Below are positions 3,850-46,686 of a stretch of DNA of 64,000 bases, in pieces. Numbering within the stretch: the first letter of the stretch is position 1; each line of letters starts with the position of its first letter. Origin of the DNA: an uncultured Rhizobiaceae bacterium (GTDB taxonomy: Bacteria; Pseudomonadota; Alphaproteobacteria; UBA828); contig CAYSDJ010000002.1 in the NCBI GenBank assembly GCA_964429775.1, positions 60,859 to 124,858 of the forward strand. The letters are read 5' to 3'. Below the pieces are notes generated by a model, which did not search any database, had not been told where the DNA came from, and was given only the letters and a program-made list of their open reading frames with translations. A program made the position numbers and the translations under genes.

Positions 3850-4044
3850 TGTTGAGATTTCGTGATTTTACGCTAGGTGGAGGTATGATCAACAATCGGA
3901 AAACACCATGGACAGGCTGTCATGCTGTCCAACAGATTTGACCCATCCCAGAATATCTCTGAGTTGTCATCACGGACCGGCTGGTTTCGCAGCACTAATA
4001 ATTTTAAATCCATTCCGGCAATCTTATTTGTTCCGGGGACATAT

Positions 4045-5400
4045 TTAGGCTGATTTTTTGTAGATGGGGATATTATTAAGTTCTGTTTTATCAGCGCGCC
4101 GTGCGGCGCCAACAGCTAATACTAACATCAAGACCACCCAGAATATCACACCGAATCTCGACGCGGTAATTACAGGAGACCCAACGCCTGACAAAAGTAC
4201 AAATAAACCAAGAATCGTCAGGAGCCGCCCCGTTTCTATTCCGCGATACCACTCATTGGCACCCAGATACAACATTGTCGCTATAAATCCCAAATAAAGC
4301 AGTAGCGAAACGATACCACCCTGCATAAAATATTGAAGATAAGCGCTGTCTACAACGCTTAAATAAGCGAATCCAAGACCCTGTATCGGCGCGACTTCCC
4401 AAATATAAGGAAAGATTCCGCCTATCGAAAAATCATCATTAATTCCATATCGAATAGAAACAAAATGTAAAAATAGTGTAACCGGAGTATGTTTTGTGCC
4501 GCTGGTAAACAACTCCAGAATAAGTCTAGCTCCAATCCACGATTCTACAAAAATCACTACTGCACCTATTGCCGTCAATAGAACGGTTAATATTTTCCAT
4601 GATATTCGAGGGCTAACTCTCCCTGGCACCATCCAATAAATAATAAACAGTGGCAAACCTCCAAATAAAAATGTCTTAGAAACACTAACTGTGCCGCCAA
4701 CAACGATCAATCCCCCAAGTAACAACATCATGATCGATATTTGTTTTGTTTTACGTACTTGAAATGTCCACATTATTAAGGCCAATGTATAAGCATGGCC
4801 AGCTGTCGCCGGAAAATCGAAAATGCCGGTAAATCTGCCAGTCCCGGAATCCAATTGATCTGGTATTTCTCCCGTGATAACTTCTTCACGTAGAAAATAA
4901 TTTGTTATAGGTGCTGTATTCAAAAACACAGACGCCAACGCAATTAACGCATTTATTGCCATCAACGCAATCAGTATCTTTGCAACTTTATCTAACAATA
5001 TCTGTGTGTTTAAAGAGCTATATTTTCTTACGACCGCTCCGATAATTATAATCATAACAATAGTTTGAAAATAATTTTCGAAACCGCCAACTTCGTCCCA
5101 AAATGTACGGGATGAGTTTGTCACATGAGAGGGTACACCACCTGATGTTACCACCAGAGTCCAGATGGTAATAAAGCTAAAAATAGATAGTAGGAAAAGA
5201 ACTGGCTTGTAAAATAAAAGAGACTTTCCGCCGACGCATAAAATACCCAATGCTATCGGCAACAAAACGTACATAAATACTTGTTCTGTACCGACTCCGA
5301 TACTCGGCATTAATAGTGGACCAAATGCCGACACCATTAAAAACGATGGTACATAGCGCCCGGTTCCAAGCTGTCTGAGTTCAGTGACCATTAGGCCCAC
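4045..5400 (-). CDS. Polytopic inner-membrane protein, O-antigen polymerase/ligase (Wzy-like) candidate
   Basis: 451-aa ORF made almost entirely of hydrophobic spans (roughly 10-12) with one larger loop. AT-rich codon usage, typical of serotype-specific wzy genes. No diagnostic motif, so the call rests on topology and context only. Confidence 0.5.
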   Translation of the reverse strand: MGLMVTELRQLGTGRYVPSFLMVSAFGPLLMPSIGVGTEQVFMYVLLPIALGILCVGGKSLLFYKPVLFLLSIFSFITIWTLVVTSGGVPSHVTNSSRTFWDEVGGFENYFQTIVMIIIIGAVVRKYSSLNTQILLDKVAKILIALMAINALIALASVFLNTAPITNYFLREEVITGEIPDQLDSGTGRFTGIFDFPATAGHAYTLALIMWTFQVRKTKQISIMMLLLGGLIVVGGTVSVSKTFLFGGLPLFIIYWMVPGRVSPRISWKILTVLLTAIGAVVIFVESWIGARLILELFTSGTKHTPVTLFLHFVSIRYGINDDFSIGGIFPYIWEVAPIQGLGFAYLSVVDSAYLQYFMQGGIVSLLLYLGFIATMLYLGANEWYRGIETGRLLTILGLFVLLSGVGSPVITASRFGVIFWVVLMLVLAVGAARRADKTELNNIPIYKKSA

Positions 5401-5551
5401 TATAATTCATCATGTTATAAACGCTCTCTTATCTTCCAGCATACACCGAAAAAGAAGTGAATGGTGTAGATACAGTGATTTTATTTCGATAATAATTGTT
5501 TCTTGTAATAATTTTTAATATCGGAAGATAATATATACATATTTAGTTATG

Positions 5552-6592
5552 TTATTTTGTCTGATCTAATTCCTCATAGTGAGATGTTATATGTATATTT
5601 ATTTTTTCAACGTCATTCACCTTGCGAAAAACGAAATAGGCGTACCATTCACTACTCGTGTTGTCGTGAATAAAAGAACGCCTCAGATATCTCCACTTGC
5701 GATTTGCATATACTATTTTTAGAAATATTTCCTCCCCAAGCCAGTTACTTAGTAACTCTTTAACCCTTTTTCTAACACTCATGGGCGTTATGTTCTCTAC
5801 GGACTCGGTACCAACGCGGGAGGAGTCAACGGTCGGTGAGTACGCCTTGTCACCGGAGCGTGCTGGATAAAGAATACTATCACATCGTCTGACCGCCGGG
5901 CGATTTCTGCGAGCAGTATTGATTGTTTTGAGTATGGTAATGAGAAGATCACCGAGCGGTAGCAGAACGAATATCGGTGTCCCTTTAGTGGCAAACCGCC
6001 GATAAGGTAGAATTGTGCCCTTAGGGTTGATCAAAAATGCACGTTCCAGCTGAAATCCGTTTCCCGTATGAAAATCGATTAGGAAATTTGGCGACGGATT
6101 TAAGTCAAAGCGGTTTGTGTGATCACCAACCGTTGTAACAACAATCTTTATTCCGCCGGTTTTAGTCATTTTCGACGTATTCGAATAAGATTGAATAATA
6201 TTTGTCACATAAGTTGATGTAATATCAAGAACGAGGTCGTATTGTTGATGACACTCCGTCGATATCGGGTGAGATAAATCACACACTATATCCGCTCTGT
6301 CATAGATATCTATGTCTGAATATTTATCGTATCCAAATGATTTTAATACTTGAGAAGCGAGTTTATTACTCGAACGATAATATTGATTGCCTCCGCTGCA
6401 CATGTGCGCTGACATCTCTTCGTCAGAGATAGTCTGGATACCATACTTTCGAAGATATTTCCGGGTAAATAGAACATCATGTGCGCCCGTCGCTGCAGCT
6501 GAATAAATGGTTGACGCATTCACCTCATCCGTTTTGCGAATAAGGTCGGATACATTGTTTAATATATGCAGCCAAGTATTAGCATAAGACAT
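5552..6592 (-). CDS. Hypothetical protein (orphan, AT-rich). Possibly a degenerate Rossmann/methyltransferase-like fold.
   Basis: Uninterrupted 346-aa ORF in an AT-rich region where random stops are frequent, so it is likely real. I recognise no family motif. The segment DIYDRADIVCDLSHPI..YDLVLDITS only vaguely recalls class I MTase motifs. Confidence 0.45.
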   Translation of the reverse strand: MSYANTWLHILNNVSDLIRKTDEVNASTIYSAAATGAHDVLFTRKYLRKYGIQTISDEEMSAHMCSGGNQYYRSSNKLASQVLKSFGYDKYSDIDIYDRADIVCDLSHPISTECHQQYDLVLDITSTYVTNIIQSYSNTSKMTKTGGIKIVVTTVGDHTNRFDLNPSPNFLIDFHTGNGFQLERAFLINPKGTILPYRRFATKGTPIFVLLPLGDLLITILKTINTARRNRPAVRRCDSILYPARSGDKAYSPTVDSSRVGTESVENITPMSVRKRVKELLSNWLGEEIFLKIVYANRKWRYLRRSFIHDNTSSEWYAYFVFRKVNDVEKINIHITSHYEELDQTK

Positions 6593-6659
6593 TAATTTAT
6601 ATTCTCCGGTATTTTATTAAGTTATCGCTTTACATATGACGACTTTTCGCCTGAGCGGT

Positions 6660-6955
6660 TTAATTATTACGATTAATCGAAAGAAACATTTCTTCCGAAA
6701 TCGAAACAATTTTATCTGGAACAGCGCCGGGCGTGAAATGTTTATCATAGGTTTTGTGCCCGCCCTGGCGAAGCCTTCGGTTTAATTCACTATCAAGGCA
6801 AGCGCGCATAACCAAAGACGCTATTTCGAGCGCCTACGCCCCCACTAGCACATTCTCACATTGATCAAATTCCGGATGCGCTTCCAAACTGCCTTCATGA
6901 ACAACCAGACACAGGCCGGGGACCCATGCCATTATTTGCCAGCTAAAAATTGACT
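6660..6955 (-). pseudogene. Decayed third copy of the tandem GT4-like glycosyltransferase family (C-terminal ~95 codons only, with an in-frame stop)
   Basis: Minus-strand translation reads ..QIMAWVPGLCLVVHEGSLEAHPEFDQCENVLVGA*ALEIASLVMRACLDSELNRRLRQGGHKTYDKHFTPGAVPDKIV..*. It is colinear with the C-termini of the ORFs at 7553-8899 and 8987-10375. In-frame TAG at 6834-6836. No N-terminal part is present. Confidence 0.8.
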
Positions 6956-7552
6956 GTTGTGATGGACACTCCCATATTCTCCCTCTGAGACTAAAAGATA
7001 ACTGTTAATTCAGATATTTTGCTTCACACCCAATATCTAATATTTATATTATTCATTAAAGTTATGTCATTTTGTCTTTTGATGCAAGATTATAAATATT
7101 TTTATTATCTCAGCCCGTTCCGCATTAATGTGGGATGAAACATTGACAAAAGAGAACGCATATTCTTGCTAATGTGTGGGAAATGAAACTTTTTCTCTAT
7201 TTATTTACTGCCGGGCGGATACAGCGTATATAGCTTTAAGTACTAAGAAATGTATAAACAAAGTCGTCGAGAGATAGCAATATGGGAACCGATATTCCAT
7301 TGACCGATTCTCCTTCTTAATTACTTATCGTTTGAGATCTATCATATTATTAAAAACAAAACTTCATATTAGCTCAATAGGGCGCTCTCATATGGCAGTT
7401 ATTTACAGCTACTATGCATATTCTGGTCTACATAACATAAATAGTAATTCATTTTTTCATAACTAATGAGTGTCTCAGCAATGTTATGTTATTATATAAA
7501 AATAAGTGGCGTTACCTTATTATAATTTAACGTAGTCCGTATTTTGCAGATT

Positions 7553-8899
7553 TTATTTTACAACATCTTTCATTACCGCTATTATTTTTTTAGAAATAGC
7601 CAAAGGCGTAAAATGTTTGTCAAAAGTGTCGCGTCCTCCTTCACAAAGTTTTCGATTTCGTTTTTTATCTAGACAGGCGCTCCTAACCAGAGATGCTATT
7701 TCTGATGCTGACGCCCCCACCAAAGCATTTTTACCATGTTCGAGCTCCGGCAGCGCCTCCTTACTTCCTTCATGTACAACGAGACATAGACCCAAAGCCC
7801 AAGCCATTATTTGTCTGCTAAATATCGCTTTGGCCGGCCCTACATTGTTCAAAAATAGAAATACATTAGAGTCCATCAACTCCACATCTAGATCTTCTAC
7901 ATATCCTCGAACAATAACGTTTTTCTGCTTCAATTTCGCTTGTATGGGCTTTGCCAAGGCACCACCTCCGATAATATGTACCTCGAACTGATAACCTTTC
8001 ATTTCTTGATGCAGCTCCGGCATAAGCTTTTGGAGTAAATATTCGAGGCCAAACGTGGATGCCGTCGAATTGAGAAAACCAACATGACCAATAATCTTAA
8101 ACGGCTTTGCTATACTACCATCACGTGCCAATGAAGATCGATAATCAATCGTAGAAATTGGTTGATTGGTCCACGTCGTTCCGACATATGTGACCTTCGG
8201 ATGGCCCATATCTTTATAATACTGAACATTATTTGCCGATGCTGACACAATGGCATCCGCGCAAAGTGACACATATTTATGGCTCTTTTCATAATTTTGA
8301 AAACGTCGTCGCCTTATATATTTAGCGATCCGGTGTCGCATGTGATATTTTTTCTTGGTACTTGAATCATGAAACAATCTTTCATAGTTTAATCGTACTT
8401 TATCCGACATAAAGTCAATGTCACCTTGAAAAATAATTGTCGGATATTCCTTGACTGTCGCTATGGCACTGGCTCCATGTGGAGATACAACAGCAAGTAA
8501 TATATCGGGTTTAAACTGATCAGCAACTTCCGTTAATTTGGTTCCCATATTTATAGCGGGATAAAATGACCGTATCGAGTATATCCCACAAAGTTTTTTA
8601 ATATTACGATAAATCCGGGATATATAATGATGGCGAGTTCGTGTAACTGTTTTTTCATTCACAATAATCGGAGATAAAATGGAAAAATTACCTTTTTTGC
8701 AAGACTCAATTAAAAAGGGATCATTTACCCCCTTGTGGGAAAGTATTGAATTACTTTCTACGACTGGCAAAAAGGCAATATCGTGACCCATATTTGACAT
8801 TGCATGGGCCATTAAGAATAGTTGAATGTTAAGAGCGGTAACACCTGTATGTTTAACAGTATCATACGGCATATCTTGTACTACAATTATAATTCTCAT
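7553..8899 (-). CDS. Glycosyltransferase, GT-B/GT4-like (tandem paralog A)
   Basis: 448 aa. C-terminal half has the GT4-type pattern (..VRGYVEDLDVELMDSNVFLFLNN..VVHEGSKEALPELEHGKNALV, an ExxxxxxxE motif). Clear paralog of 8987-10375. Confidence 0.7.
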   Translation of the reverse strand: MRIIIVVQDMPYDTVKHTGVTALNIQLFLMAHAMSNMGHDIAFLPVVESNSILSHKGVNDPFLIESCKKGNFSILSPIIVNEKTVTRTRHHYISRIYRNIKKLCGIYSIRSFYPAINMGTKLTEVADQFKPDILLAVVSPHGASAIATVKEYPTIIFQGDIDFMSDKVRLNYERLFHDSSTKKKYHMRHRIAKYIRRRRFQNYEKSHKYVSLCADAIVSASANNVQYYKDMGHPKVTYVGTTWTNQPISTIDYRSSLARDGSIAKPFKIIGHVGFLNSTASTFGLEYLLQKLMPELHQEMKGYQFEVHIIGGGALAKPIQAKLKQKNVIVRGYVEDLDVELMDSNVFLFLNNVGPAKAIFSRQIMAWALGLCLVVHEGSKEALPELEHGKNALVGASASEIASLVRSACLDKKRNRKLCEGGRDTFDKHFTPLAISKKIIAVMKDVVK

Positions 8900-8986
8900 C
8901 TAACCGACCAGCACCTATAACTATGTTAATCTAATTATAATTATATAACTCTAGCCTATTATAATTTGTGAGAGTAAATAGACTTC

Positions 8987-10375
8987 TCACAAATCAACTC
9001 GCATATGATTATTTTTATTATTTCCACCTGGGGAAATAAAATCTTCCATGACTGAAAGCATTTTTGTCGCAACGGCTGTAGGAGTAAAAAATTTTTCATA
9101 AGTTTGGAGCCCCCCTCGGCGCACCCTATTATTCAGGTCCTTTTCAAGACACGCGAGTTTGATAAGAGATGCTATTTCCGGTGCCGATGCACCTACGAGC
9201 GCATTCTCGCCATGAACGATTTCCGGCAGTGTTTCTAAACTTCCTTCATGAACAATCGAGCAAAGCCCGAGAGCCCAAGCTATGATCTGCCGGCTGAAAA
9301 TCGATTTCAATGGCCCTGCATTATTCAAAAACAGAAATACATCCGAATCGAGCAGTTCAGAATCTAAGTCTTTTACATATCCTCGAACGATAATATTATC
9401 TTGCTCTAAATATCCCTGAAGAGCTTTAGTAACCTCACCACCACCAATAATGTGAACCTCAAAAGCTAATTCGCTCATTTCCTGCCGCAGAGCCGGCATG
9501 ACGTATTTAAGAAGGTATTCAAGGCCAAATGTTGAAGCCGTCATACCTAAATAACCAGCATGACCGATTATTTTGAAAGGTCGCTCTTCACTTCCATCGC
9601 CCGCTCTTTCCGTATGTCGGTTGGCTATTTCATCTGTTAGTTTTGACCAAATAGTGCCGACATACACAACTTTTGGGTGACCAATATCTTCATAATACTG
9701 GTTATTACCCGCTGACGTGTTAAAAATTATATCTGAGTGAAGTGAGACAAATTTATGAGAGTTCTCAAAATTATTAATGTGTTTCTCTCTAATCATTCTC
9801 TTTATATACCGCACAGCCCAGGGCCTCTTCGGTATCTTCGAGTCCTGAAACAAATGGTTGTATTCTAGGCGTAATTTATCTGTTATAAAATCGATATTAC
9901 CTTGGAAAATAGCCTTCGGATACTTAGTTACATTTGTCGCGGCACCAGCCGCTAGGGGACTCAAAAAAGATAATAAAATATCCGCATCAAATTCATCTGC
10001 GCACCTTGTTATTTCCGTACTCAAGTTTATGGAGGGGTAGTATTTCATCGTCGGGGCTACATTGAAAAACTCCCATATCGTTTTACTCAGACGATTTACC
10101 GGTCCGATTGCATGATGTGTTGGTGCTATTTCGTCGAAAAAGACAGGCCGCAAGACGGTAAATTCATTCTGGTTATTGGCCTCGACCAATAAATGAGAAG
10201 TTGATGTCTTCTCTGAATAATTATTGCCGTTCTCTTGAACCGGCAACAGTGCGACCTTATGACCCATTATAGACATTTCATGAGCCATCAAAAATAATTG
10301 AATATGGACTGCCGTAACTTCCTTAGATACGACGGACTCAAAGGGAAGATTCTCAGTAATAATTAGTATATTCAT
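8987..10375 (-). CDS. Glycosyltransferase, GT-B/GT4-like (tandem paralog B)
   Basis: 462 aa, colinear with paralog A along its whole length (MNILIITENLPFE.. vs MRIIIVVQDMPYD..; ..IVHEGSLETLPEIVHGENALVGASAPEIASLI..). Confidence 0.7.
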   Translation of the reverse strand: MNILIITENLPFESVVSKEVTAVHIQLFLMAHEMSIMGHKVALLPVQENGNNYSEKTSTSHLLVEANNQNEFTVLRPVFFDEIAPTHHAIGPVNRLSKTIWEFFNVAPTMKYYPSINLSTEITRCADEFDADILLSFLSPLAAGAATNVTKYPKAIFQGNIDFITDKLRLEYNHLFQDSKIPKRPWAVRYIKRMIREKHINNFENSHKFVSLHSDIIFNTSAGNNQYYEDIGHPKVVYVGTIWSKLTDEIANRHTERAGDGSEERPFKIIGHAGYLGMTASTFGLEYLLKYVMPALRQEMSELAFEVHIIGGGEVTKALQGYLEQDNIIVRGYVKDLDSELLDSDVFLFLNNAGPLKSIFSRQIIAWALGLCSIVHEGSLETLPEIVHGENALVGASAPEIASLIKLACLEKDLNNRVRRGGLQTYEKFFTPTAVATKMLSVMEDFISPGGNNKNNHMRVDL

Positions 10376-10827
10376 TATATTTAGGAGAAAAAATAAAACA
10401 TGTTTTAAATTTCATTCTCAGTGGCAATTTAATTAACTACTTTTCGATCCAATTTGTACTGCCAACCGAAAGTAGGCTTGTTAACCAATCTGACCAATGG
10501 GGAATCCTATCGCCTGTATTTTCACTCCACCCCCCCACAATCACGGCGTTACCAATTCTATATTTAAATCAACCGACTCCTAATCATTGAGCAATATTAA
10601 AACAAAATAGCTGTCGCTAATTATTTCAATATTAACTTCACCAGTAAGTGGGTCAAGGCCCATGATAAATGTATCACCAGTTTCAATTTCCGTGATCGAT
10701 CGCCTGTCAATACCCGCCGCGCTGGACATGATTATGCTGCCGTTCTGCAATTTATGGCTAACGCCATATTGTCAATATTGGCGTTCAAGTGGATGTACTT
10801 TATGACAATACCGGATGATCAGGTGGA

Positions 10828-11820
10828 TTACGAGTGCTTTGCATAGTAGACGATTTGGCTACCTGAATTTTCAAAGCGAAATGGCACATGAAGAAATTTC
10901 TCCAATTCTTGCCGCACCTTAGGTTGATCTCCAGGCTTCGCCACAAACGCCATGAACCCCCCACCTCCGGCGCCCAGTAATTTCCCGCCAATCGCACCCG
11001 CGCGCCGCCCCGTCTCATAAATTTCATCTATGAAGGTGTTGGCGATACGTGACGTAATTTCTCTCTTGATCATCCATTGCTCATGTAGGAGCCGACCGAA
11101 ATCCGTGACTATGTCGCCTTCGCTGCCAAACAATTGGAAAGCGTCTTCGGCCAGCGCTTGAATTTGCGCATGCTCCTTCTGTTTATTACCCATCTGATTT
11201 ATTTGCTCCGCCGCGATATCCGGTGCGCAGCGGGCGAAGCCGGTAAAAACCAGCATGAGATGGTCTTCCAAGGCCTGACGGCGCTCGGGCGACATTAAGA
11301 TCGGCGTGACGGTGATATCATGATCATCGCGAAAATCGATTCGATTGAACCCGCCAAACGCGGCCGCCATTTGATCCTGCGAGCCAACCGCCTCACCGAT
11401 TAAATCCTGCTCCACATGGATGGCACGCAAGGCAAGCTCCTTCTTGCTCAGCATTTGGTTTTCCAGTCCGGCCAGTGCATTCAGGAGACCCACCGTAAAG
11501 GTTGAACTTGAACCCAGGCCCGAGCGCGCCGGAAGGTCCGCATGGTGGACAATCTCCAAACCGTTCTCATAGTCAAAAAGCTTGAGGCATTCCCGGGCGG
11601 ACGGATGGCGGATATCCTCGACTGTCGTTGTCTCCTCGGTTTCGTAATAACGAATGCGATAACGATAATCGAAAAAGGGCGGCAGGTGACGGGCGGTAAT
11701 AAAGGAGTATTTGTTGATCGTCGCGCTGATCACCGATCCGCCATGTTCCCGGTACCATTGAGGATAGTCCGTGCCGCCACCGAAAAACGATATCCGGAAT
11801 GGGGTGCGGCTGATGATCAT
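10828..11820 (-). CDS. hddA: GHMP-family sugar kinase, D-glycero-alpha-D-manno-heptose 7-phosphate kinase (HddA)-like
   Basis: N-terminus MIISRTPFRISFFGGGTDYPQWY is characteristic of the HddA/COG2605 group. GHMP ATP motif PARSGLGSSSTFTVGLLNAL. 330 aa. Confidence 0.7.
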   Translation of the reverse strand: MIISRTPFRISFFGGGTDYPQWYREHGGSVISATINKYSFITARHLPPFFDYRYRIRYYETEETTTVEDIRHPSARECLKLFDYENGLEIVHHADLPARSGLGSSSTFTVGLLNALAGLENQMLSKKELALRAIHVEQDLIGEAVGSQDQMAAAFGGFNRIDFRDDHDITVTPILMSPERRQALEDHLMLVFTGFARCAPDIAAEQINQMGNKQKEHAQIQALAEDAFQLFGSEGDIVTDFGRLLHEQWMIKREITSRIANTFIDEIYETGRRAGAIGGKLLGAGGGGFMAFVAKPGDQPKVRQELEKFLHVPFRFENSGSQIVYYAKHS

Positions 11821-12938
11821 TGAATCGAATCCATAATACCATGCCAGATTCGGTATTCCTCGAAGAACCCGCTTATCTCGCGCCGCGCATCATCGGGAAT
11901 CTCATCGTTCTCCGCGGCACCGGCCAAAACGCTATCGATTAACGACGAAAGGACCTCTAGATAGTCGTCACCGGTAAGTTTCGCAGACCGCAATTGGCTG
12001 AGAAAATACGCGTTGGCCTTGTTGTTGGGCAACTCGTCCTCAAGGTCGACCCAAAGATTGTGCGGATTTCGAACCTGCTCGACCAGCGGCTCTCCAAACG
12101 CCACCATTTCATCAAAGTGAGCGACGAGCTTACAGAGGACGAAGGCCGCCCAGATATCCGAATTTCGGCCGACCACGGGCGGCGTAAAATACGCCGGCGC
12201 CGCCGCCCGCGACAAAGCCGTATTCTGATTGTTCCAGGACGACCAAGTGCCGGGCGCGAGGGCAAACCCGGGGGCAAAATCGGGCTGCATGGCGCGCACC
12301 CGGATCGGCCAAAACAATCGGCTAATGGCATCGATGTCCGGATCGCCGAGGACAAAGCCATTGAGCGCTGCGATCGTTCCGCGCCCGGCCTTAACGGCCC
12401 AACTCTTGTCCTCGCCAAAGCGTTCGCTCCACGGATAGCCGCGCGGAAAAATCGGCAGCGATTTCTCCTCGATCACACCCTGATAGATGTTGAACCAACC
12501 GCTATCCGACGATACCACCTTGGTGTCGCTCTCCCGCCCGACAACATCGTAATGACCGAAAAAATCCGACCCCGTCATGAAATTATCGTCGTCGAGCATG
12601 ATCAGGCGCTCCGCGCCATCGCGATAGGCAAGAATGTTGGCAAGCATCTTACGGCCGCCCCAATTATACGGCAGAATCCGCTCAGCCCCCGGCAGGCCCT
12701 TGACGATCTCAATCTGGGCCGGCACGTCAAAATAGAGGAATTCGAGGCCGAACTTTTTTTCCATGGATGCACAAAAATCACCGGCGCCAGCCGGTGTCTT
12801 GTGATCGCCAATGACATAAAACCTGATGTTCTCATGCCCATGCTCGCGGGCGTTTGCGCAGACGCCTTCAAAAAATGTCGGGACGTGGATCGTGGTCGTC
12901 AGAACGGCATCAAAACCGGCGTCAAAACTCATGGCCAA
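11817..12938 (-). CDS. Reversibly-glycosylated-polypeptide (RGP / GT75, UDP-arabinopyranose-mutase family)-like protein
   Basis: Colinear with plant RGP landmarks as I remember them. TTIHVPTFF..FYVIGDHKTP matches IVIPTIR..IIVQDGDPS. LIMLDDDNF matches FTIDDDCF. PRGYPWSER..NGFVLGDPDIDAISRL matches VRGYPFSLR..HGLWLNIPDYDAPTQL. GRNSDIWAAFVLCKL matches GRYDDMWAGWCVKVI. ATGA overlap with hddA. Confidence 0.55.
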   Translation of the reverse strand: MAMSFDAGFDAVLTTTIHVPTFFEGVCANAREHGHENIRFYVIGDHKTPAGAGDFCASMEKKFGLEFLYFDVPAQIEIVKGLPGAERILPYNWGGRKMLANILAYRDGAERLIMLDDDNFMTGSDFFGHYDVVGRESDTKVVSSDSGWFNIYQGVIEEKSLPIFPRGYPWSERFGEDKSWAVKAGRGTIAALNGFVLGDPDIDAISRLFWPIRVRAMQPDFAPGFALAPGTWSSWNNQNTALSRAAAPAYFTPPVVGRNSDIWAAFVLCKLVAHFDEMVAFGEPLVEQVRNPHNLWVDLEDELPNNKANAYFLSQLRSAKLTGDDYLEVLSSLIDSVLAGAAENDEIPDDARREISGFFEEYRIWHGIMDSIQ

Positions 12939-12997: not shown

Positions 12998-13966
12998 CTA
13001 AGTCCCGATATGGGCATGCCACCAACGAAGTGTTTTTTCAATTCCCTCTTGCAGCGATACACACGGTTGCCACGCCAATTCGTCCTTTGCCTTGCTACAG
13101 TTCAACGATAAAGAGGTCTTGATGGTTGGTTTCGAAAGGTCATGTTCCAGGACAAGGTCCGGATTTTCGGCGGCAACGATCATTTCCACCAGATGACGAA
13201 TTGTCACAGCTTCTCCGGCGCCGCAATTGTAAAGTCCGTATTGGGCGGATTGGCGTGTGACGGCACACTGCACGAAATCGACCAGGTCGCCGACATAAAG
13301 AAGATCGCGCGACTCCTCGCCGGTGCCCCAAACGGTGACTTTGCCATCCGCCGCCGTGCACACTTTGGTCATCGTCGCGCCAAACACGTGCGAGCGCTCT
13401 AGGTCAAACTTGTCGTGCGGCCCGTAAATATTGGAATGGCGGATGATGGTGAATTTCGTCTCGCTCTGGCGGGAAAAAAATTCGCACATTTTCTCGATAT
13501 AGACTTTGGTCCAGCCAACACCGAAATAGTTGGGATGAAGCGGCACCGACTCGTCGAAATCGGTTTCGCTGAGCGGCGTGTCGGAACTCTGATACATAAC
13601 CGTACAGCTGAAGAAGACGAAATGGCCGATGCCCAGATCGTGTACGGCGCGCAGCAACAGCGAATTCATCACCGCATTGTCGGTCACGTGAATATGCGGC
13701 CGTGACACAATATCCTTCGACCCGGACGTGGTTGCCGCAGCCTGAATGATGATATCGACATCGGCGAGACATTCCTGAACATTCTGTGCATTGGTCAAAT
13801 CCGCCTGGCGCCATTCAACCCCGGCGATTTCAAAAGGCGGTTTGCGGTGCCAAACGGCAATCACCCGATAGTCCGGATTTCCGGCATAGGCCTCGACGAC
13901 ATTGCGCCCGATAAACCCGGTCGCGCCGCATATAAGAAGTGTCCGGCGTTCGCTCAATGCCCGCAA
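12998..13966 (-). CDS. GDP-L-fucose synthase-like SDR (GDP-4-keto-6-deoxy sugar 3,5-epimerase/4-reductase family)
   Basis: LLICGATGFIGRNV NAD motif and the Fcl-type segment IIRHSNIYGPHDKFDLERSHVFGATMTKV. 322 aa. Confidence 0.7.
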   Translation of the reverse strand: MRALSERRTLLICGATGFIGRNVVEAYAGNPDYRVIAVWHRKPPFEIAGVEWRQADLTNAQNVQECLADVDIIIQAAATTSGSKDIVSRPHIHVTDNAVMNSLLLRAVHDLGIGHFVFFSCTVMYQSSDTPLSETDFDESVPLHPNYFGVGWTKVYIEKMCEFFSRQSETKFTIIRHSNIYGPHDKFDLERSHVFGATMTKVCTAADGKVTVWGTGEESRDLLYVGDLVDFVQCAVTRQSAQYGLYNCGAGEAVTIRHLVEMIVAAENPDLVLEHDLSKPTIKTSLSLNCSKAKDELAWQPCVSLQEGIEKTLRWWHAHIGT

Positions 13967-13978: not shown

Positions 13979-14716
13979 TTATCGCCCGCCCGTAACCGGA
14001 ACCACCGCTCCGGTCACATAGGAAGCTTTATCGGAAAGAAGCCACGCTACGGTGTCGGCAACTTCCTGTGGCAGGCCAACCCGGCCGAGGGGAATGGATT
14101 TCTCCAGGCGGTTCCGATCCGCATGATCACCGGACGCCATGTCGGTATCTATTACGCCGGGGCTCACGGCGTTGACGCGAATGCTCTCGCCGGCGAGCTC
14201 TCGCGCCAATGCCAGCGTCATGATGGCAAGGCCCGCCTTGGCCGCCGCGTAGGGCAAAAGACGGTTGCCGCCGGTATAGGCTGCCTGAGAGACCACATTC
14301 ACCACGGCACCACCGCTGCCGCCACGGCTTTTCGCCATGCGCCGGGCAGCCTCCTGCGTGCAGAATGCCGGGCCGAGCAGATTCACACCAAGCGCGGCGT
14401 CGAAATCGTCTGGAGTCAGATCAATGAAATCCTTGCGTCCGCCGCTGAACCCCGCATTGTTGACCAGAGCGTAAAGCGGGACGGACATTTCATCCACGCT
14501 ATCGAACAAGCGGCCGATCTGATCTGGCGCGGCAACATCCGCCTGAACGGCTCGCGCAATACCGCCGGCGCCCAAAATTTCCTCTACAACGCTGGCAGCG
14601 GCCGCTTCATCGCGCAGATAGTTGACGCACACCGCATAACCCTCGGCGGCCAGGGATTTCGCGATCACCGCGCCAATGCCGCGGCTGGCGCCCGTAACAA
14701 TTACCGCACGAGGCAA
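13979..14716 (-). CDS. Classical short-chain dehydrogenase/reductase (SDR)
   Basis: VIVTGASRGIG cofactor motif, NNAG, catalytic YAAAKAG. 245 aa. Confidence 0.85.
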   Translation of the reverse strand: MPRAVIVTGASRGIGAVIAKSLAAEGYAVCVNYLRDEAAAASVVEEILGAGGIARAVQADVAAPDQIGRLFDSVDEMSVPLYALVNNAGFSGGRKDFIDLTPDDFDAALGVNLLGPAFCTQEAARRMAKSRGGSGGAVVNVVSQAAYTGGNRLLPYAAAKAGLAIMTLALARELAGESIRVNAVSPGVIDTDMASGDHADRNRLEKSIPLGRVGLPQEVADTVAWLLSDKASYVTGAVVPVTGGR

Positions 14717-14729: not shown

Positions 14730-15743
14730 TCAATGACCTTGCGGCGTCATTTCGGGGTCGGTGAACGCGTTATAGCGTTTGTACGCCGCCTCGCCATTCT
14801 GGCGATACCAGGCAACCGTTTGGGCGATTCCCTCGGCCAGTGAGATTTGTGGTTCAAAGCCATATTTTTGCGCCCGCTCCATGCTCATCAGGCGCTCTTT
14901 ATCGCCTGTCGGCTTCGAGGTGTCCCACGCGATCTCCGGCGCATCGTCGAGACAATCGAGAATGACCTCGACCAATTGGCGGATCGAAACGGGCTGGCCA
15001 CTTGCCAAATTAACCGGCTCCGATACGCCGTGTTCCACCATCAACATCATGCCCCGGGCAACATCCTCGGCAAAAATGAAATCGCGCACGGGAGAGCCGT
15101 CACCCCAGATCGACAAGGGATTCTCGCCGGACAAGGCACGCCGGATCAGCGACGGTATGACCATGGCGTTGTTGGCATCAAAATTATCGTAAGGCCCATA
15201 AACGTTTCCCGGGCGAACAACCGAAATTTCGTTCCATTCATATTCGATCTGGTAGGCCTCGGCCTGCAATTCGCCCATGCGTTTTGCCCAGCCGGCAAAT
15301 TTGTCGTTTTCAGATGGGAATGTTTTCCACACATCGTCTTCGCGGAACAGCGCGGCCGGCGAGTAGACACCGACACTACTGGTAAATAGATAGCGCTTCA
15401 CGCCGGCGCGCCGCGCCGCCTCCATCATATTGATGCTGAACATAAGGGTCGGGACAAAAAAGGTCGCCGGCCGGCTCGCCGTCATCGCCGGGGAGCCTTT
15501 GACGCCGGCAAGATGGAAGACATAGTCCATATCGGCGCAGACCGGCATGCAATTGGCCAAATTCCTGAGATCGACACGTACGAATTCGACGCCGTCAGGC
15601 GCCCGCGAAGGCGGATCAAGCGACGCTACCCGCACCTTGGCGCCGGCCGCGAGCAGCAGACGTACCAGCGGTTGACCAATAAGTCCGCTACCGCCGGTTA
15701 CCAAGACAGCCTTGTCGTGAAAGAAACTTGTCTTCGTCATCAA
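14730..15743 (-). CDS. NAD-dependent nucleotide-sugar epimerase/reductase (extended SDR)
   Basis: VLVTGGSGLIGQPL motif, 337 aa, SDR-e architecture. Confidence 0.75.
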   Translation of the reverse strand: MMTKTSFFHDKAVLVTGGSGLIGQPLVRLLLAAGAKVRVASLDPPSRAPDGVEFVRVDLRNLANCMPVCADMDYVFHLAGVKGSPAMTASRPATFFVPTLMFSINMMEAARRAGVKRYLFTSSVGVYSPAALFREDDVWKTFPSENDKFAGWAKRMGELQAEAYQIEYEWNEISVVRPGNVYGPYDNFDANNAMVIPSLIRRALSGENPLSIWGDGSPVRDFIFAEDVARGMMLMVEHGVSEPVNLASGQPVSIRQLVEVILDCLDDAPEIAWDTSKPTGDKERLMSMERAQKYGFEPQISLAEGIAQTVAWYRQNGEAAYKRYNAFTDPEMTPQGH

Positions 15744-15774: not shown

Positions 15775-16737
15775 TCATGCGAGGCGCGCCCTGTGGTAAT
15801 TCAGTAAATCTTCCATGGTCTGCTCGAGCGCCACCTCGGACTGCCAGCCCGTCGCCTGACGGAACTTGCTGGTGTCGGGAATTTGCAAGGTGACATCGGA
15901 CGGGCGCAGAAGCGCATCGGATATTTCATGCCGGACCTCGCAACGCGCCAGCGACTTCAGAACCTCGAGCATTTCACCGACGGTCATGGTGCGGTCCCCG
16001 CCTATATTGTAGGCCTCTCCGGGCGTGCATTTTTCGAGCAATTGCCAATAGGCGCGAACCGCGTCGCGCACATCGGCAAATGTCCGGACGCTATCCAGAT
16101 TGCCGACCCGGACGATGTTGTCGCCGGTCAAGCCGGCTTCGATTCTGGCGATCTGGCGGGCAAACGCGCTTTCCGCGAAGACATCGCCCCGGCGCGGTCC
16201 GGTGTGGGTAAACATGCGCGTCCGCAGAGTGCGAATGCCGTAGGAGAGAAAATATTGCAGCGCGATCATATCCTCGCCGACCTTGGATACCGCATAGGGG
16301 CTGGCCGGGCGAAACGGGTTGTTCTCGTTGATCGGAATCTCGTCCTCGCGCACCTGCCCATACACTTCCGATGACGAGCATATGTGGATCAGCGGGTCGA
16401 GCTCGGTATGGCGCACGGCCTCAAGCAAATTGGTGGTGCCGATTGTATTTACGTGAATAGTCTCGGCCGGCAAGGCGAAGCTGTCGACAACATAGGACTG
16501 CGCCGCAAGGTGAAAGATGCGCTCCGGCCCGACCTCGCGCAGAAGACCAATCAATGACCCGAGATCGTGCAAATCCGCCGCGTGGAGGTGAATGCGATCG
16601 AGAATATGGCGGATATTGTCGCGCGGGCTGCGCCAGCGAATCGTGCCATGAACCTCAACATCCGGGTGTTCAGCCAGAACATATTCGGCCAGATGACTTC
16701 CGACCATTCCGGTTATTCCGGTAATCAATATTTTCAT
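15775..16737 (-). CDS. GDP-sugar 4,6-dehydratase / GDP-4-keto-6-deoxy reductase family SDR (Gmd/Rmd/DmhA-like)
   Basis: MKILITGITGMVGSHLAEYVL..VHGTIRWRS.. N-terminus is typical of the short GDP-mannose 4,6-dehydratase/Rmd group. YAVSK catalytic motif. 320 aa. Confidence 0.7.
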   Translation of the reverse strand: MKILITGITGMVGSHLAEYVLAEHPDVEVHGTIRWRSPRDNIRHILDRIHLHAADLHDLGSLIGLLREVGPERIFHLAAQSYVVDSFALPAETIHVNTIGTTNLLEAVRHTELDPLIHICSSSEVYGQVREDEIPINENNPFRPASPYAVSKVGEDMIALQYFLSYGIRTLRTRMFTHTGPRRGDVFAESAFARQIARIEAGLTGDNIVRVGNLDSVRTFADVRDAVRAYWQLLEKCTPGEAYNIGGDRTMTVGEMLEVLKSLARCEVRHEISDALLRPSDVTLQIPDTSKFRQATGWQSEVALEQTMEDLLNYHRARLA

Positions 16738-16788: not shown

Positions 16789-17529
16789 ATGGCTTCATTG
16801 GATTCAGACGAAATGAGCGCAATACCCTCCATATCCGAACTGCCCGCCATTATCCTGGCCGGGGGATTGGGCACCAGACTTCGGCCGGCAACCGGGGATA
16901 TGCCAAAAGCCATCGTTCCGGTGGCCGGCGAACCCTTCCTCAACCACCTTCTGAGCCGCCTGGACCATGCCGGTATTCGCCGCGCCATTTGCTGCACCGG
17001 CTATGGCGCCGAGCAAATCCGCCAAACGATGGGAGAGAAATTCGCTAATATCGACCTCGCCTATTCCAAAGAGGACCAGCCGCTCGGCACCGCAGGCGCT
17101 CTATCCCAGAGCGCCGAACATTGGCACGCCGAGTTTGCCCTGGTTATGAACGGCGACACTTTGTTTGATTTAGATTTACCAGCCTTTTTAGAGTGGACCG
17201 CAAGCAAAAGAGATATCCGCGCCTGTTTGGCGCTGGCGCCGACGCCCGGCATCAATCGCTATGGCAGCGTCTCGACAAACGATGAAGGCGGCATCACCCG
17301 ATTTGAAGAAAAAGGTGGCCAGTCGAGCGGCTGGATCAATGCCGGCATCTATTTGCTTCGACGCACCATGTTGGATGAATTTCCGGCCGCCCGGCCGCTG
17401 TCCCTGGAAGTCGATATTTTTCCGGCGTTGATTGGCAACGGGCTGTACGGATTTCGCCAGCAAGGCCGGTTCCTGGATATTGGCGTTCCGGAGGATTACC
17501 GCGCGGCCGAGGAATTTGTCCGCGCCTAA
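16789..17529 (+). CDS. Sugar-1-phosphate nucleotidyltransferase (HddC / mannose-1-P guanylyltransferase-like)
   Basis: AIILAGGLGTRLRPATGDMPKAIVPVAG signature. The track ORF (from 16567) overlaps the divergent dehydratase gene and its first 74 codons look non-coding. The first internal ATG at 16789 gives a 246-aa protein of the expected size. Confidence 0.75.
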   Translation: MASLDSDEMSAIPSISELPAIILAGGLGTRLRPATGDMPKAIVPVAGEPFLNHLLSRLDHAGIRRAICCTGYGAEQIRQTMGEKFANIDLAYSKEDQPLGTAGALSQSAEHWHAEFALVMNGDTLFDLDLPAFLEWTASKRDIRACLALAPTPGINRYGSVSTNDEGGITRFEEKGGQSSGWINAGIYLLRRTMLDEFPAARPLSLEVDIFPALIGNGLYGFRQQGRFLDIGVPEDYRAAEEFVRA

Positions 17530-17554: not shown

Positions 17555-18847
17555 CTATCTCGGCAGAGATTCGATTTGATCGCGCACCCAAGTAATATTT
17601 TCGGCTGTTATCGCTTGATGATTGCCGATCGAGAAGCTGTTGCGCATGACATTGGTGGCCGAGGCCAAATCGCCGACCGTACGGTGGGGATAATCCTGCA
17701 AACCCGGCTGGAGAGCGATATTGCCGCAGATGATCGGCCGGGTTTCGATTCCGGCAGCGTCGAAATGCCGGCGCACGTCATGGCATGAATAGGGTGCCTC
17801 GGGCCGGACAGTAACCGGAAAGCCAAACCAGGCATGGGTGCCGCCCGGTGTCTCGCTTTGGGTTTGCATGAAGTCGCCTTGGCTGGCGAAAAGTTTTTTC
17901 CAGTGCGCTGCGGTCGCCCGGCGCTGACCCAGAAATTCTTCCAGTTTCGGCACCTGCTCCAACCCGACAGCCGCCTGAACTTCGGTCAAACGTAAATTGT
18001 AGCCGACATTGACGAAAAGAAACCGCGCATCGATTTCCGGAAATTGTTCGGTGTAACGTTGCTTGTTTTTGGCTTCGCGAATCCAGCCATGCGAGCGCAA
18101 AATCCGTAGCGTATCGGCGATTTCATCGTCAGCGGTCATGCACATGCCGCCTTCGAAGGTGGTGATGTGATGCGAGAAATAGAAGCTGAAGCTCGAAATA
18201 CGGCCAAATTGGCCGAGCGGCCGGCCTTTATATTCGCCGCCCATCGCCTCGCAGACGTCCTCGATCATCATCAACCCGTGCCGGGCGCAAATATCCTCAA
18301 GCGCATCCATATCGCACGGATTGCCATAGACATGGACCGGCATGATCGCACGGGTCTTGGCGCTGACGGCGCGCTCAACCTCGTTCGGATCCATGTTCAG
18401 GGTCGCCGGATCGATATCGACAATCACCGGCGTCAACCCGTGTTGGACCAGCGGCCAGATTGTTGTCGACCATGATAGCGCCGGCACGATCACCTCGTCG
18501 CCAGGCCTGAGACCATCCTTGGTCTGGGGGTTCGCCAAAGCACCGACCGCCAGCAAATTTGCCGATGAGCCGGAGTTGCACGACACCCCTTCGGGCACGC
18601 CGACGAGATTGGCAAAGACACGCTCCAACTCGGCGACACGTTTGCCCATGGTCACATAGGACGTCAGCATGCAATCCACTGCCGCCATGATCTCATCGAC
18701 GCCGAAAGTGGGCTCGTGCAGCTTCAGCCCATTGCCACGCACCGCCGAAGCCTCGGCCATCTCAAGCTCCCAGCCCTCTGCAATCGCCTTCCGGAGTGCT
18801 TCCCGCGCCGCTGCTTTGGCGCCGCTTGGGTCTTTGGCCTTGGGCAA
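17555..18847 (-). CDS. PLP/PMP-dependent sugar 3-dehydratase of the DegT/ColD/E1 (RfbH) type
   Basis: DegT/DnrJ/EryC1 fold (..NSGSSANLLA..). The active-site segment reads SFSFYFSHHITTFEGGM, so His sits where sugar aminotransferases have the Schiff-base Lys. I see no CxC-type Fe-S motif. Confidence 0.7.
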   Translation of the reverse strand: MPKAKDPSGAKAAAREALRKAIAEGWELEMAEASAVRGNGLKLHEPTFGVDEIMAAVDCMLTSYVTMGKRVAELERVFANLVGVPEGVSCNSGSSANLLAVGALANPQTKDGLRPGDEVIVPALSWSTTIWPLVQHGLTPVIVDIDPATLNMDPNEVERAVSAKTRAIMPVHVYGNPCDMDALEDICARHGLMMIEDVCEAMGGEYKGRPLGQFGRISSFSFYFSHHITTFEGGMCMTADDEIADTLRILRSHGWIREAKNKQRYTEQFPEIDARFLFVNVGYNLRLTEVQAAVGLEQVPKLEEFLGQRRATAAHWKKLFASQGDFMQTQSETPGGTHAWFGFPVTVRPEAPYSCHDVRRHFDAAGIETRPIICGNIALQPGLQDYPHRTVGDLASATNVMRNSFSIGNHQAITAENITWVRDQIESLPR

Positions 18848-18880: not shown

Positions 18881-19948
18881 CTAAAACGGCCCGCGAAATT
18901 CCGTAACTTCGGCGGCATCGCTGCCTTCCGGCATCCAAGCGCCATCGTCAGTGCCTGTTACCAGGCTGTGCGCACGCGACGCGATCGTCCGGTCATTTGG
19001 ATAGTAGAGCTGCTCCAGCGGCCGGGTTGTCGGGCACGGCGAAGACGCGAAGCCCATCCGGCCAACGGCGATGCTGCGCCTGCCCTGCAGCCGCTCGACG
19101 GTCTCGGCAATAATTTCGGCCGACGCGCCGCAGCTCAGCCAGCCATTGTCAACGACCAACAGCCGGCCGGTTTTCTCAACCGAAGACACAATGCGATCCC
19201 AATCGATCGGGCTCAGGCTGACCGGGTCGATGATCTCCGCCGCAATACCGACGCTCTCCAAGTGGTGCCGCGCGCGCAATGCCTCAATCACCATATGGCT
19301 GATCGCGACGATGGTGATGTCCCCGCCTTCCGCCAATAAACGTGCCTGGCCGAACGGCACTTCGTAGCTCTCCTCGGCAACGTGGCCGGAGAGGCCATAG
19401 AGCATCCGGTGCTCAATAAAGACGACCGGGTTGTTGTCGCGGATGGCTGAGACGAGGCAGCCCTTGGCGTCATGCGCCGTGGTCGGCGCCACGACCTTCA
19501 GACCGGGGACATGCATGAACATCGCATGCAGCGCCTGTGAATGCTGCGCACCCTGGCCCCAACTGCGGCCAATCGAGGCCCGGACAACCAAGGGCACGCG
19601 ATAGGTGCCATTGAACATGTAAGAAAATTTCGCCGCCATGTTGACCAGCTGGTTCATGCACAGCAGCAAAAAATCCATACGCTGGTGAACATTTATCGGC
19701 CGCATGCCGGCAAGGGCGGCGCCCACCGCCAAACCCGTCATCGCGTCTTCGGCAAGCGGCGTATCGAAGCATCTGTCGGGGCCGAAATCGCGGTGCAAAT
19801 CCATCGTCGTGCCGTAATGGCCCTTATGATCGTCAACCCCCTGGCCGAACACGAACACATTGTCGTCGCGCTCCATTTCCTGCCGGGTCGCCTCATAGAG
19901 CGCCTCAGCGTAAGTGATTTGGCGCAAGGGTTGATTATCCGTAGACAT
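18881..19948 (-). CDS. ThDP-dependent 2-oxoacid dehydrogenase E1 component, beta subunit-like
   Basis: 355 aa, typical E1-beta layout (..VFVFGQGVDD..FDTPLAEDAMTGLAVGAALAGMRPI..). Overlaps the alpha subunit gene by 14 nt. Confidence 0.8.
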   Translation of the reverse strand: MSTDNQPLRQITYAEALYEATRQEMERDDNVFVFGQGVDDHKGHYGTTMDLHRDFGPDRCFDTPLAEDAMTGLAVGAALAGMRPINVHQRMDFLLLCMNQLVNMAAKFSYMFNGTYRVPLVVRASIGRSWGQGAQHSQALHAMFMHVPGLKVVAPTTAHDAKGCLVSAIRDNNPVVFIEHRMLYGLSGHVAEESYEVPFGQARLLAEGGDITIVAISHMVIEALRARHHLESVGIAAEIIDPVSLSPIDWDRIVSSVEKTGRLLVVDNGWLSCGASAEIIAETVERLQGRRSIAVGRMGFASSPCPTTRPLEQLYYPNDRTIASRAHSLVTGTDDGAWMPEGSDAAEVTEFRGPF

Positions 19949-20900
19949 GATCGATCAACATGTCGGCTTCCGGATAAGGTGCGGCCTCCGCCAAGGCAAA
20001 AGCCTCACTGATTTCGGCGGTAACGGCGCCCTCGATTGCCGCCCGCGCTTCGGCATTCAACAAATCGCCGAGAAAACGCATCGGATCTTTGCTAAAGCGC
20101 GCTTGCTCTTCCGCAGCGTCACGATAACCGGCGTCCCAATCCTCGGCTGGGCCGACATGCTCGCGCCAGCGGCAGGTTGTGCATTCGAGAAAGCGTGGGC
20201 CGGCACCGGCGCGTACGTCACTGACCAATTCAGCCGCGGCGCTGCGGATTGAAACAATATTCTCATCGCTAACCTGCCGGCCCTGAATGCCATACGACGA
20301 AAACCGCCCGGCCAGCCCGGGGCCCGCCATTCTGTTTTCAGCCGGCGAATGAATGGCCAGTTGATTATTTTCACAGACAAAAAGCAGCGGCAGATATTTC
20401 AAGGAAGCAAAATTCATCGCTTCATGAAACGCGCCCTCATCGGTCGCGCCCTCGCCGAAAAAGCAGACAACGACCGCCGGCTGGCCTTTCGATCTGATCG
20501 CGAACGCATGGCCCACCGCCAAGGGGATATTGGTCGCCACAATGGCCGACATGCCCATCACGTTGACGGCGCTATCGACGAGGTGCATCGAGCCGGCCTT
20601 GCCCCCGGCGCAGCCCGATTCGCGGCCGAATAATTCGGCAATCATCGCCTTCAGGTCGCCACCCTTGGCAAGATAAAGCGCATGCCCCCGGTACGTGCCG
20701 TAAGCAATATCCTCGCGCTCCAGAACATCGCAAACACCGACCGAAACGGCTTCCTGCCCGATCGATAAATGAATCGGGCTCTTGACCAGGTCAGTCGGAT
20801 AAATTCGGGCAACTTCTTCCTCAACGCGGCGGATGCGCAACACGGCCCGATACAGCGCGCCGATTTTCTCGGTCGAAAGCCCGGTTTTGTTGTCTGTCAT
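19935..20900 (-). CDS. ThDP-dependent 2-oxoacid dehydrogenase E1 component, alpha subunit-like
   Basis: 321 aa. ThDP-binding motif region FFGEGATDEGAFHEAMNFASLKYLPLLFVCENNQLAI. Confidence 0.8.
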   Translation of the reverse strand: MTDNKTGLSTEKIGALYRAVLRIRRVEEEVARIYPTDLVKSPIHLSIGQEAVSVGVCDVLEREDIAYGTYRGHALYLAKGGDLKAMIAELFGRESGCAGGKAGSMHLVDSAVNVMGMSAIVATNIPLAVGHAFAIRSKGQPAVVVCFFGEGATDEGAFHEAMNFASLKYLPLLFVCENNQLAIHSPAENRMAGPGLAGRFSSYGIQGRQVSDENIVSIRSAAAELVSDVRAGAGPRFLECTTCRWREHVGPAEDWDAGYRDAAEEQARFSKDPMRFLGDLLNAEARAAIEGAVTAEISEAFALAEAAPYPEADMLIDHVYG

Positions 20901-46624: not shown

Positions 46625-46686
46625 TATTTTGGCTTGCGCCCGATAACTTGGTTCGTCCCTGAATGGCACTGGCGGGCATAGCGACC

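Follow-up and report, generated by a model that had tools for sequence, protein, structure and literature searches.

What does a homologue of the plant reversibly glycosylated polypeptides (RGPs) do in a bacterial cluster of nucleotide-sugar genes? The question is raised by a 64,000-nucleotide stretch of the genome of an uncultured Rhizobiaceae bacterium (assembly GCA_964429775.1, contig CAYSDJ010000002.1, positions 60,859 to 124,858; hereafter, the window), in which a preliminary description of the DNA had placed a gene of the GT75/UDP-arabinopyranose mutase family at 11817..12938. The encoded 373-residue protein (P0001; hereafter, the query) is probably a cytoplasmic, metal-dependent, flavin-free GDP-sugar pyranose/furanose mutase of the type represented by MtdL, Hyg20 and plant UAM (GT75 in the wide sense), which would act most likely on a GDP-6-deoxy- or GDP-3,6-dideoxy-heptose made by the products of the neighboring genes and supply a heptofuranosyl donor to downstream glycosyltransferases. 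This assessment draws on homology, fold, active-site conservation and a recurrent gene context, from which we infer the mutase activity, the substrate and the order of the steps.

Family membership of the 373-residue protein

The open reading frame (ORF) at 11817..12938 is real and intact; it is located on the minus strand, which the preliminary description had left unstated, and encodes 373 amino acids (aa) counted from a TTG start, with no internal stops. An AGGA sequence is found 7 nt 5′ of the TTG, and an alternative ATG start two codons after it would give a protein of 371 aa. Homologues align with the product over its full length (query coverage 94-98%). The stop of this ORF is shared with the start of a GHMP-kinase gene (10828..11820, also minus) in the sequence caATGAtc, the ATGA overlap with an hddA-like start that had been noted before. 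All four landmark blocks of plant RGPs that had been named for the protein are present in its translation, as LIMLDDDNF, FPRGYPWSER, NGFVLGDPDIDAISRLF and GRNSDIWAAF, the third of these, which belongs to the PDxDA type, being GFVLGDPDIDAISRLF.

Because the Pfam and NCBIfam profiles are silent on the query (see below), it was compared by sequence with the PDB entries, and its structure was predicted and taken into a fold search. In the phmmer search, residues 11-337 of the query align with residues 10-337 of MtdL (chains of 7xpr and 7yua, which carry the name ‘Transglycosylse’; E=3.5e-40, 141 bits, 32% identity), the GDP-L-galactose/GDP-L-fucose pyranose-furanose mutase of the A201A pathway and a member of CAZy family GT75 (PMC9937993). 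An AlphaFold2 model of the query, obtained with 50 homologues as input, has a mean predicted local distance difference test value (pLDDT) of 94.2 and a predicted template modeling score (pTM) of 0.93. The best six matches of this model in a Foldseek search of the PDB are all MtdL, with a template modeling (TM) score of 0.89 for the entire chain, C-terminal helical region included (for 7xps, TMq 0.89 and TMt 0.90 over 380 columns), and the model matches the three-region architecture of MtdL, which consists of an N-terminal Rossmann-like GT-A half, a unique core and a C-terminal helical domain. Rice UAM, with which a structural comparison had been suggested, is indeed the next match, but UAM2 (8cid, E=3.8e-11) reaches a TM score of only 0.63-0.68 at 13% identity, and ordinary GT-A transferases reach only 0.3-0.45. 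In a search of 1.84 billion representative proteins, clustered at 50% identity, 928 clusters were retrieved at E<=1e-10; judged by these sequence comparisons, the similarity of the query to the family is far beyond chance. Given the PDB match, the fold match and the 48 bits that MtdL itself scores with the RGP profile PF03214, the query is a true homologue of the GT75 mutases that lies outside the reach of this Pfam model. The superfamily assignment made in the preliminary description thus holds, with the qualification that the closest relative is the bacterial GDP-sugar mutase MtdL rather than a plant RGP.

Weak profile matches are also found among the 50 close homologues, 16 of which match PF03214 (best 1.1e-8) and 23 of which match PF03385 (STELLO). 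The gathering thresholds of the two profiles are 23.8 and 27.8 bits, respectively. Those STELLO matches that were examined in detail are sub-threshold and local, covering profile positions 1-80 of 387 only, and membership in the STELLO-type glycosyltransferases was rejected for this reason. The query itself matches neither the PF03385 profile nor, in the Pfam search, PF03275 (GLF domain). A tblastn search of plasmids yielded only distant relatives, with 24-29% identity. Some family members are fusion proteins, such as P0125 (570 aa) and P0135 (742 aa), the latter with an N-terminal half of approximately 380 aa ahead of its MtdL-like domain (residues 379-734).

The closest characterized systems are MtdL of Marinactinospora thermotolerans (PDB 7XPR, 7XPS, 7XPT, 7XPU, 7YUA and 8HL8; PMC9937993) and Hyg20 of the hygromycin A pathway, a bacterial GT75 mutase with the same two substrates. 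The query resembles these enzymes in its full-length fold, its sequence, its GDP-sugar context and the lack of a flavin domain, as well as in the DDD motif, the Arg nucleophile, the Asp base, the Gln and Arg residues that bind phosphate and sugar, the Arg and His of loop A and the guanine-side Thr. It differs from them in three substitutions described below, in escaping detection by PF03214, in its location in an alphaproteobacterial surface-polysaccharide locus as opposed to actinomycete antibiotic clusters, and in its neighbors, which point to a (di)deoxy-heptose rather than to L-Gal or L-Fuc and include a linked thiamine diphosphate (ThDP)-dependent E1 pair. With the plant class-1 RGPs and UDP-L-arabinopyranose mutases (OsUAM1/3, AtRGP1-3 and rice UAM2; PF03214), the query shares the superfamily, the GT-A-derived fold, the catalytic Arg, the DxD motif and the RGYPxSxR, PDxDA and GRxxDxWA blocks. 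However, the match is confined to the fold level, the plant proteins are eukaryotic and cytosolic or Golgi-associated, and they use UDP-sugars and have a Pro where the query has a Thr.

The furanose routes of Campylobacter, in contrast, depend on FADH2-requiring enzymes of the Glf/UGM type. In the capsule loci of C. jejuni, these include HS41.17, which acts on CDP-6-deoxyhexoses, HS15.16, which acts on UDP-L-Ara, and the predicted GDP-6-deoxy-heptopyranose mutases HS10.16 and HS41.15 (PMC10680097). The proposed reaction, from an NDP-pyranose to an NDP-furanose for a surface polysaccharide, is alike, and the substrate class predicted for the query, GDP-6-deoxy-heptose, is that proposed for HS10.16 and HS41.15 (PMC10680097), but fold and cofactor are unrelated: the nucleophile is N5 of FADH2 in the Glf/UGM enzymes and would be an arginine acting together with a metal in the query. 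In Yersinia, WbyH is a predicted paratofuranose/altrofuranose ‘mutase’ (PMC5399914).

Active site and proposed reaction

The functional residues of MtdL (PMC9937993) were mapped onto the query by alignment. Mutation of R159, D195, Q229, R257, D260 or D109-111 abolishes the activity of MtdL (PMC9937993), and all these residues are retained: the proposed nucleophile R159, which is the autoglycosylated Arg of RGPs, corresponds to R166, its Asp partners D195 and D260 to D201 and D261, the diphosphate and sugar binders Q229 and R257 to Q238 and R258, and the DDD motif D109-D111 to D116-D118. The loop A residues R289 and H292, which also count among the binders of diphosphate and sugar, are likewise kept (R290 and H293), as is T13, which contacts the guanine and is replaced by Pro in plant RGPs (T15), whereas the sugar contact S228 is N237 in the query. 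The retention of the catalytic residues of MtdL agrees with the flavin-independent type of mutase that had been suggested for the protein.

Across the 50 genome loci in which relatives were found, the catalytic residues are invariant; Q288 and K47 also are, except in one poorly aligned sequence (L038), and the sugar-contact positions 93, 94 and 237 differ by clade. In a wider family alignment, for which the query and MtdL were combined with the 150 top-ranking cluster representatives, the catalytic set is kept in at least 143 of the 152 sequences, and R166, D201 and D261 in 149-150. Position 288, which corresponds to a metal-binding position in MtdL, is occupied by Gln in 89 of these sequences and by His in 53, the two residues being interleaved down the E-value ranking. 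Given this interleaving and the near-invariance of the catalytic set, the two residues are read here as probably equivalent ligands or phosphate binders, that is, as a normal polymorphism of the family. The possibility that Gln288 marks an inactive paralogue comparable to AtRGP5, which has lost both the metal-site His and the equivalent of Arg258 (PMC9937993), was considered and rejected, since Gln and His alternate in close relatives and Arg258 and the other catalytic residues are kept.

By analogy with MtdL, the DDD motif and Gln288 would hold a metal ion on the diphosphate, and Arg166 would attack C1 and displace GDP, with Asp261 as the base. The ring would then open on the Arg-linked sugar and reclose via O4, and re-attack by GDP would release the furanosyl nucleotide. 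The title of PDB entry 7yua points to such a covalent Arg mechanism.

Neighboring genes, relatives and the likely substrate

The mutase gene belongs to a minus-strand run of nucleotide-sugar genes that is transcribed from high to low coordinates. The product of the overlapping, translationally coupled gene (10828..11820, minus) is an HddA-like GHMP sugar kinase (Pfam GHMP_kinases_N/C), the best PDB matches of which are heptose kinases (3k85, 4n3o and 4usm, E 2e-38 to 2e-33), compared to 4e-16 for a fucokinase. On the other side, two extended short-chain dehydrogenases/reductases (SDRs) resembling GDP-fucose synthase and GDP-mannose-3,5-epimerase (12998..13966, an epimerase/reductase, and 14730..15743, both minus) are encoded around a classical, FabG-like ketoreductase of the SDR superfamily (13979..14716, minus). 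These are followed by an SDR similar to GDP-heptose 4,6-dehydratase (15775..16737, minus), which scores 268 bits with the solved GDP-heptose 4,6-dehydratase and at most 157 bits with GDP-mannose dehydratases. A divergently transcribed gene (16789..17529, plus) encodes an HddC-like sugar-1-phosphate guanylyltransferase with HddC as the best PDB match (5xhw/6jq8, E=1.3e-38) and NCBIfam scores of 177 bits for mannose-1-phosphate guanylyltransferase and 152 bits for HddC. Next comes a DegT-family, pyridoxamine phosphate-dependent sugar 3-dehydrase of the E1/ColD type (17555..18847, minus), best matched by the E1 3-dehydrase 3bcx (1e-74) and ColD/WbdK 2gms (7e-73); its segment SFYFSHHITTFEGG aligns with SFYPAHHITMGEGG of the E1 3-dehydrase, and it has His-His at the site of the Schiff-base Lys of aminotransferases. 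The stand-alone ThDP-dependent pair, identified with both Pfam and NCBIfam, is formed by E1 beta (18881-19948) and E1 alpha (19935-20900), both on the minus strand.

The kinase, the guanylyltransferase and the dehydratase each match solved GDP-heptose enzymes best, which argues for a heptose as the likely sugar, and the kept Thr15 together with the GDP-sugar type of the neighbors supports GDP as the probable nucleotide. These PDB matches and the ATGA overlap bear out the GDP-heptose/6-deoxy-sugar module and the coupling to the HddA-like kinase that had been described earlier, whereas UDP-arabinose, also put forward as a substrate, is unlikely because every neighbor is of the GDP-sugar type. 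Further points in favor of a GDP-heptose mutase are the place of the gene among nucleotide-sugar-modifying genes, including the overlap with the kinase gene, and the lack of a Glf-type flavin mutase: no PF03275 match was found in the whole genome, which is scored 100% complete. The mutase and kinase genes are each present in a single copy in this genome. The likely substrate is a GDP-linked 6-deoxy- or 3,6-dideoxy-heptose, possibly with a two-carbon branch, that would arise through the successive action of the HddA-like kinase, the HddC-like guanylyltransferase, the heptose 4,6-dehydratase and the 3-dehydrase, followed by the Fcl-like and FabG-like reductases and the ThDP E1 alpha/beta pair, and the resulting GDP-heptofuranose would be used by downstream glycosyltransferases for a strain-variable surface polysaccharide.

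A genome scan with one genome per species yielded 50 loci, 49 of them in genomes labelled as metagenome-assembled genomes (MAGs) and one in an uncultured single-cell assembly. The closest relatives come from uncultured Rhizobiaceae (81 and 78% identity) and a Rhodospirillales genome (50%). Within the family to which the window belongs, the mutase gene is present in 3 of 44 genomes, all of one genus; scattered, accessory occurrence of this kind is what variable surface-glycan loci typically show. In a quick maximum-likelihood tree (IQ-TREE), the query falls in a 17-member clade (clade A; SH-aLRT 100), and 31 further sequences, mostly from Acidobacteriota and phyla of the candidate phyla radiation (CPR), form another group (SH-aLRT 80).

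The ThDP E1 alpha/beta pair lies less than 10 kb from the mutase gene in eight clade-A loci from six phyla (Rhizobiaceae, Rhodospirillales, Saccharibacteria, Parcubacteria, Elusimicrobiota, Phycisphaerales, Omnitrophota and a groundwater MAG labelled Acetobacterium woodii); it is missing in the clade-A loci L004, L005 and L014. The loci of this clade usually also contain, near the mutase gene, a heptose-type dehydratase, a GHMP kinase and a FabG-like SDR, the latter in six loci. The strongest argument for a heptose substrate is the Saccharibacteria locus L007, where the genes form a single run, GmhB-GmhA-kinase-dehydratase-mutase-E1a-E1b. A homologous glycosyltransferase gene follows the kinase gene in L001-L003 and directly follows the mutase gene in L004, L005 and L010. 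In the groundwater MAG (L013), the same module also includes a NUDIX hydrolase, a third ThDP-binding fragment (Transketolase_N) and a radical SAM protein (L013:5443-6081, 8689-9375 and 11911-12915), the genes of which alternate with those for the dehydratase, the E1 pair and the mutase.

No E1 pair was found in the 31-member clade, in which only locus L017 has, at its edge, a weak match (34%) to one of the two subunits, E1 beta. The genes immediately 5′ of the mutase gene in this clade instead encode an extended SDR and a short GT2 of the DPM1-like type. Among the corresponding loci from Acidobacteriota, CPR and Chloroflexota (L016-L044, L047, L049 and L050), an extended SDR precedes the mutase gene in 28, and a DPM1/AglJ-like GT2 of 240-280 aa is present in 19. 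This arrangement suggests a conserved module composed of an epimerase, the mutase and a polyprenyl-phosphate-furanose synthase, in which the NDP-sugar would be loaded on a lipid carrier.

Several observations weigh against a GDP-heptose mutase. The query has no match in the Pfam-A and NCBIfam profile searches even at E<=1, and this includes PF03214, the search proposed in the preliminary description, whereas residues 9-336 of MtdL score 48.3 bits with the same profile; the match whose absence was to count as refutation is indeed missing, but that demand was too strict. The Mn ligand H287 of MtdL is replaced by Q288, the sugar contact D87, at which D87N and D87S are inactive, by G94, and the guanine O6 contact N42 by K47. 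In the tree, MtdL forms a very long outgroup branch, and the mutase function is a prediction for the clade of the query. In principle, a GT-A fold could also serve glycosyl transfer. Furthermore, it is not obvious what the recurrent E1 alpha/beta partner would contribute to a simple ring contraction, and the substrate or the reaction may therefore be more unusual. As for the heptose, the kinase scores 142 bits with the NCBIfam HddA model, the cutoff of which is 600 bits; a search for GmhA and GmhB in the window found neither, and the GmhA-like and GmhB-like genes that adjoin each other on contig C3 of the same genome both fall below their own cutoffs. As GmhA and GmhB are encoded nowhere else in the genome, this cluster probably feeds the heptose pathway of the window in trans. 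The region (G000 contig C3:94315-99906) comprises canonical Gmd and Fcl followed by the GmhB-like gene, the GmhA-like gene, a 340-aa ORF and a DegT-like gene.

Some of the same observations would fit an enzyme of the same type that uses a GDP-6-deoxyhexose (GDP-L-fucose or GDP-6-deoxy-L-altrose) or GDP-L-galactose, as MtdL and Hyg20 do with GDP-L-Fuc and GDP-L-Gal: two Fcl/GME-like SDRs flank the mutase gene, the kinase is also fucokinase-like and far under the HddA cutoff, the NCBIfam score of the nucleotidyltransferase is slightly higher for mannose-1-phosphate guanylyltransferase than for HddC, and GmhA and GmhB are encoded outside the locus. This alternative is nevertheless unlikely, although deserving of consideration, in view of the clear preference of the dehydratase for the GDP-heptose enzyme and of the kinase for heptose kinases (approximately 1e-38 vs. 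1e-16), the best match of the nucleotidyltransferase to solved HddC, the presence of GmhA and GmhB in the gene run of L007, and the Gly that the query has in place of the sugar-contacting Asp87 of MtdL. Even less probable, and in our estimate the weakest of the candidate readings, is a protein that glycosylates itself on arginine, or else a true GT-A glycosyltransferase, akin to the non-mutase class-2 RGPs or STELLO-like proteins, which would transfer a sugar to itself or to an acceptor. The DxD motif in a GT-A fold, the autoglycosylation known in other GT75 members, the RefSeq names of relatives with 25-29% identity (‘STELLO glycosyltransferase family protein’ or ‘alpha-1,4-glucan-protein synthase’), the weak PF03385 matches and the replacement of the metal-site His that is lost in inactive AtRGP5 could all be cited in its favor. 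The STELLO matches are, however, those sub-threshold ones at the start of the profile; Arg258, the other residue lost in AtRGP5, is kept; the residues essential for the mutase are all near-invariant; and Gln and His are swapped at the metal site between close relatives. Moreover, the full-length model, with the closed core and the MtdL-specific helical domain, superposes on MtdL, whereas transferases superpose on the Rossmann half only, and the gene lies among precursor genes, not among glycosyltransferase or polymerase genes.

The linkage to the E1 pair allows for yet another possibility, namely that the Arg-linked ring opening of the MtdL type serves a different rearrangement tied to this pair, for example by offering an open-chain or furanose form for a two-carbon addition at a position that lies outside the ring in the furanose alone, or by ring contraction of a sugar that carries its branch beforehand. 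The association of the strongly supported clade of the query with the E1 pair in six phyla, its absence from the 31-member clade with its DPM1-like GT2 and SDR, and the differences between the two clades at sugar-contact positions 93, 94 and 237 are compatible with this scenario; yet co-location gives no reaction order, three members of the clade do without the pair, no precedent is known, and the remaining evidence fits the simplest view, with branching of the 4-keto intermediate by the E1 pair and the mutase reaction as the final step. We therefore regard such a coupled rearrangement as decidedly improbable. Hardly more probable is a broader proposal, under which the clade-A Gln-site GT75 proteins and the stand-alone ThDP E1 pair would constitute one conserved unit of GDP-heptose pathways, horizontally spread over at least six phyla, with ring contraction mechanistically linked to two-carbon branching; for example, C5/C6 could become accessible to oxidation and acyloin-type addition once the sugar is in the furanose form, and the product would be a branched, higher-carbon (nonose-like) heptofuranose not yet described in any glycan.

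Novelty and further features of the locus

Bacterial GT75 mutases as such are already known. The activity had been called poorly documented in bacteria, but both MtdL and Hyg20 are characterized, and MtdL was crystallized with substrate and product (PMC9937993). The clade of the query, its heptose context and the recurrent linkage to the E1 pair are undescribed, and there is no documented member of the MtdL/GT75 family in a surface-polysaccharide pathway or acting on a heptose; the tested bacterial enzymes come from only two actinomycete antibiotic pathways. The furanose-forming steps characterized so far for Gram-negative surface polysaccharides all use Glf/UGM, including the heptose, arabinose and 6-deoxyhexose cases of Campylobacter (PMC10680097, PMC10615251, PMC12369002). 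If active, the query would represent a second, cofactor-free path to furanosyl donors for bacterial glycans and an enzymatic supply of GDP-heptofuranoses. Its large branch of the family is spread over Alphaproteobacteria, Acidobacteriota, CPR phyla and others, and nearly all of the relatives whose own names were consulted are called ‘hypothetical protein’; an active query would also allow hundreds of genes labelled ‘hypothetical’ or ‘STELLO-like’ to be annotated correctly. The alternation of Gln and His at position 288 offers a natural test case for metal use.

Directly downstream of the precursor genes, two paralogous GT-B glycosyltransferases are encoded (7553..10375, minus; Pfam Glyco_trans_1_4), which are candidate users of the product of the mutase; two ORFs without Pfam matches (4045-5400 and 5552-6592) lie in the same AT-rich island. 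From directly after the kinase gene (window 3850-10827), the GC content is 38-40%, compared to 55-60% in the precursor module and a genome average of 59.9%. Because of this drop, the glycosyltransferase/polymerase part of the locus and the part devoted to sugar precursors seem to be of separate origin.

Farther along the window, a second ThDP pair is found in the form of a split transketolase (39628-41636, minus), with the N-terminal ThDP-binding part at 40551-41636 and the Pyr and C-terminal parts at 39628-40551. Beside it are encoded an APH-type phosphotransferase (41371-42606), two extended SDRs (43045-45041) and a C-methyltransferase (46687-47934), and the region looks like another unusual sugar-building module of the locus. 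Finally, the gene at 45083-46717 (minus) encodes a fusion of a cytidylyltransferase-like domain (residues 60-186) with a PfkB kinase domain (225-525), which may represent a second, ADP-type route of heptose activation.

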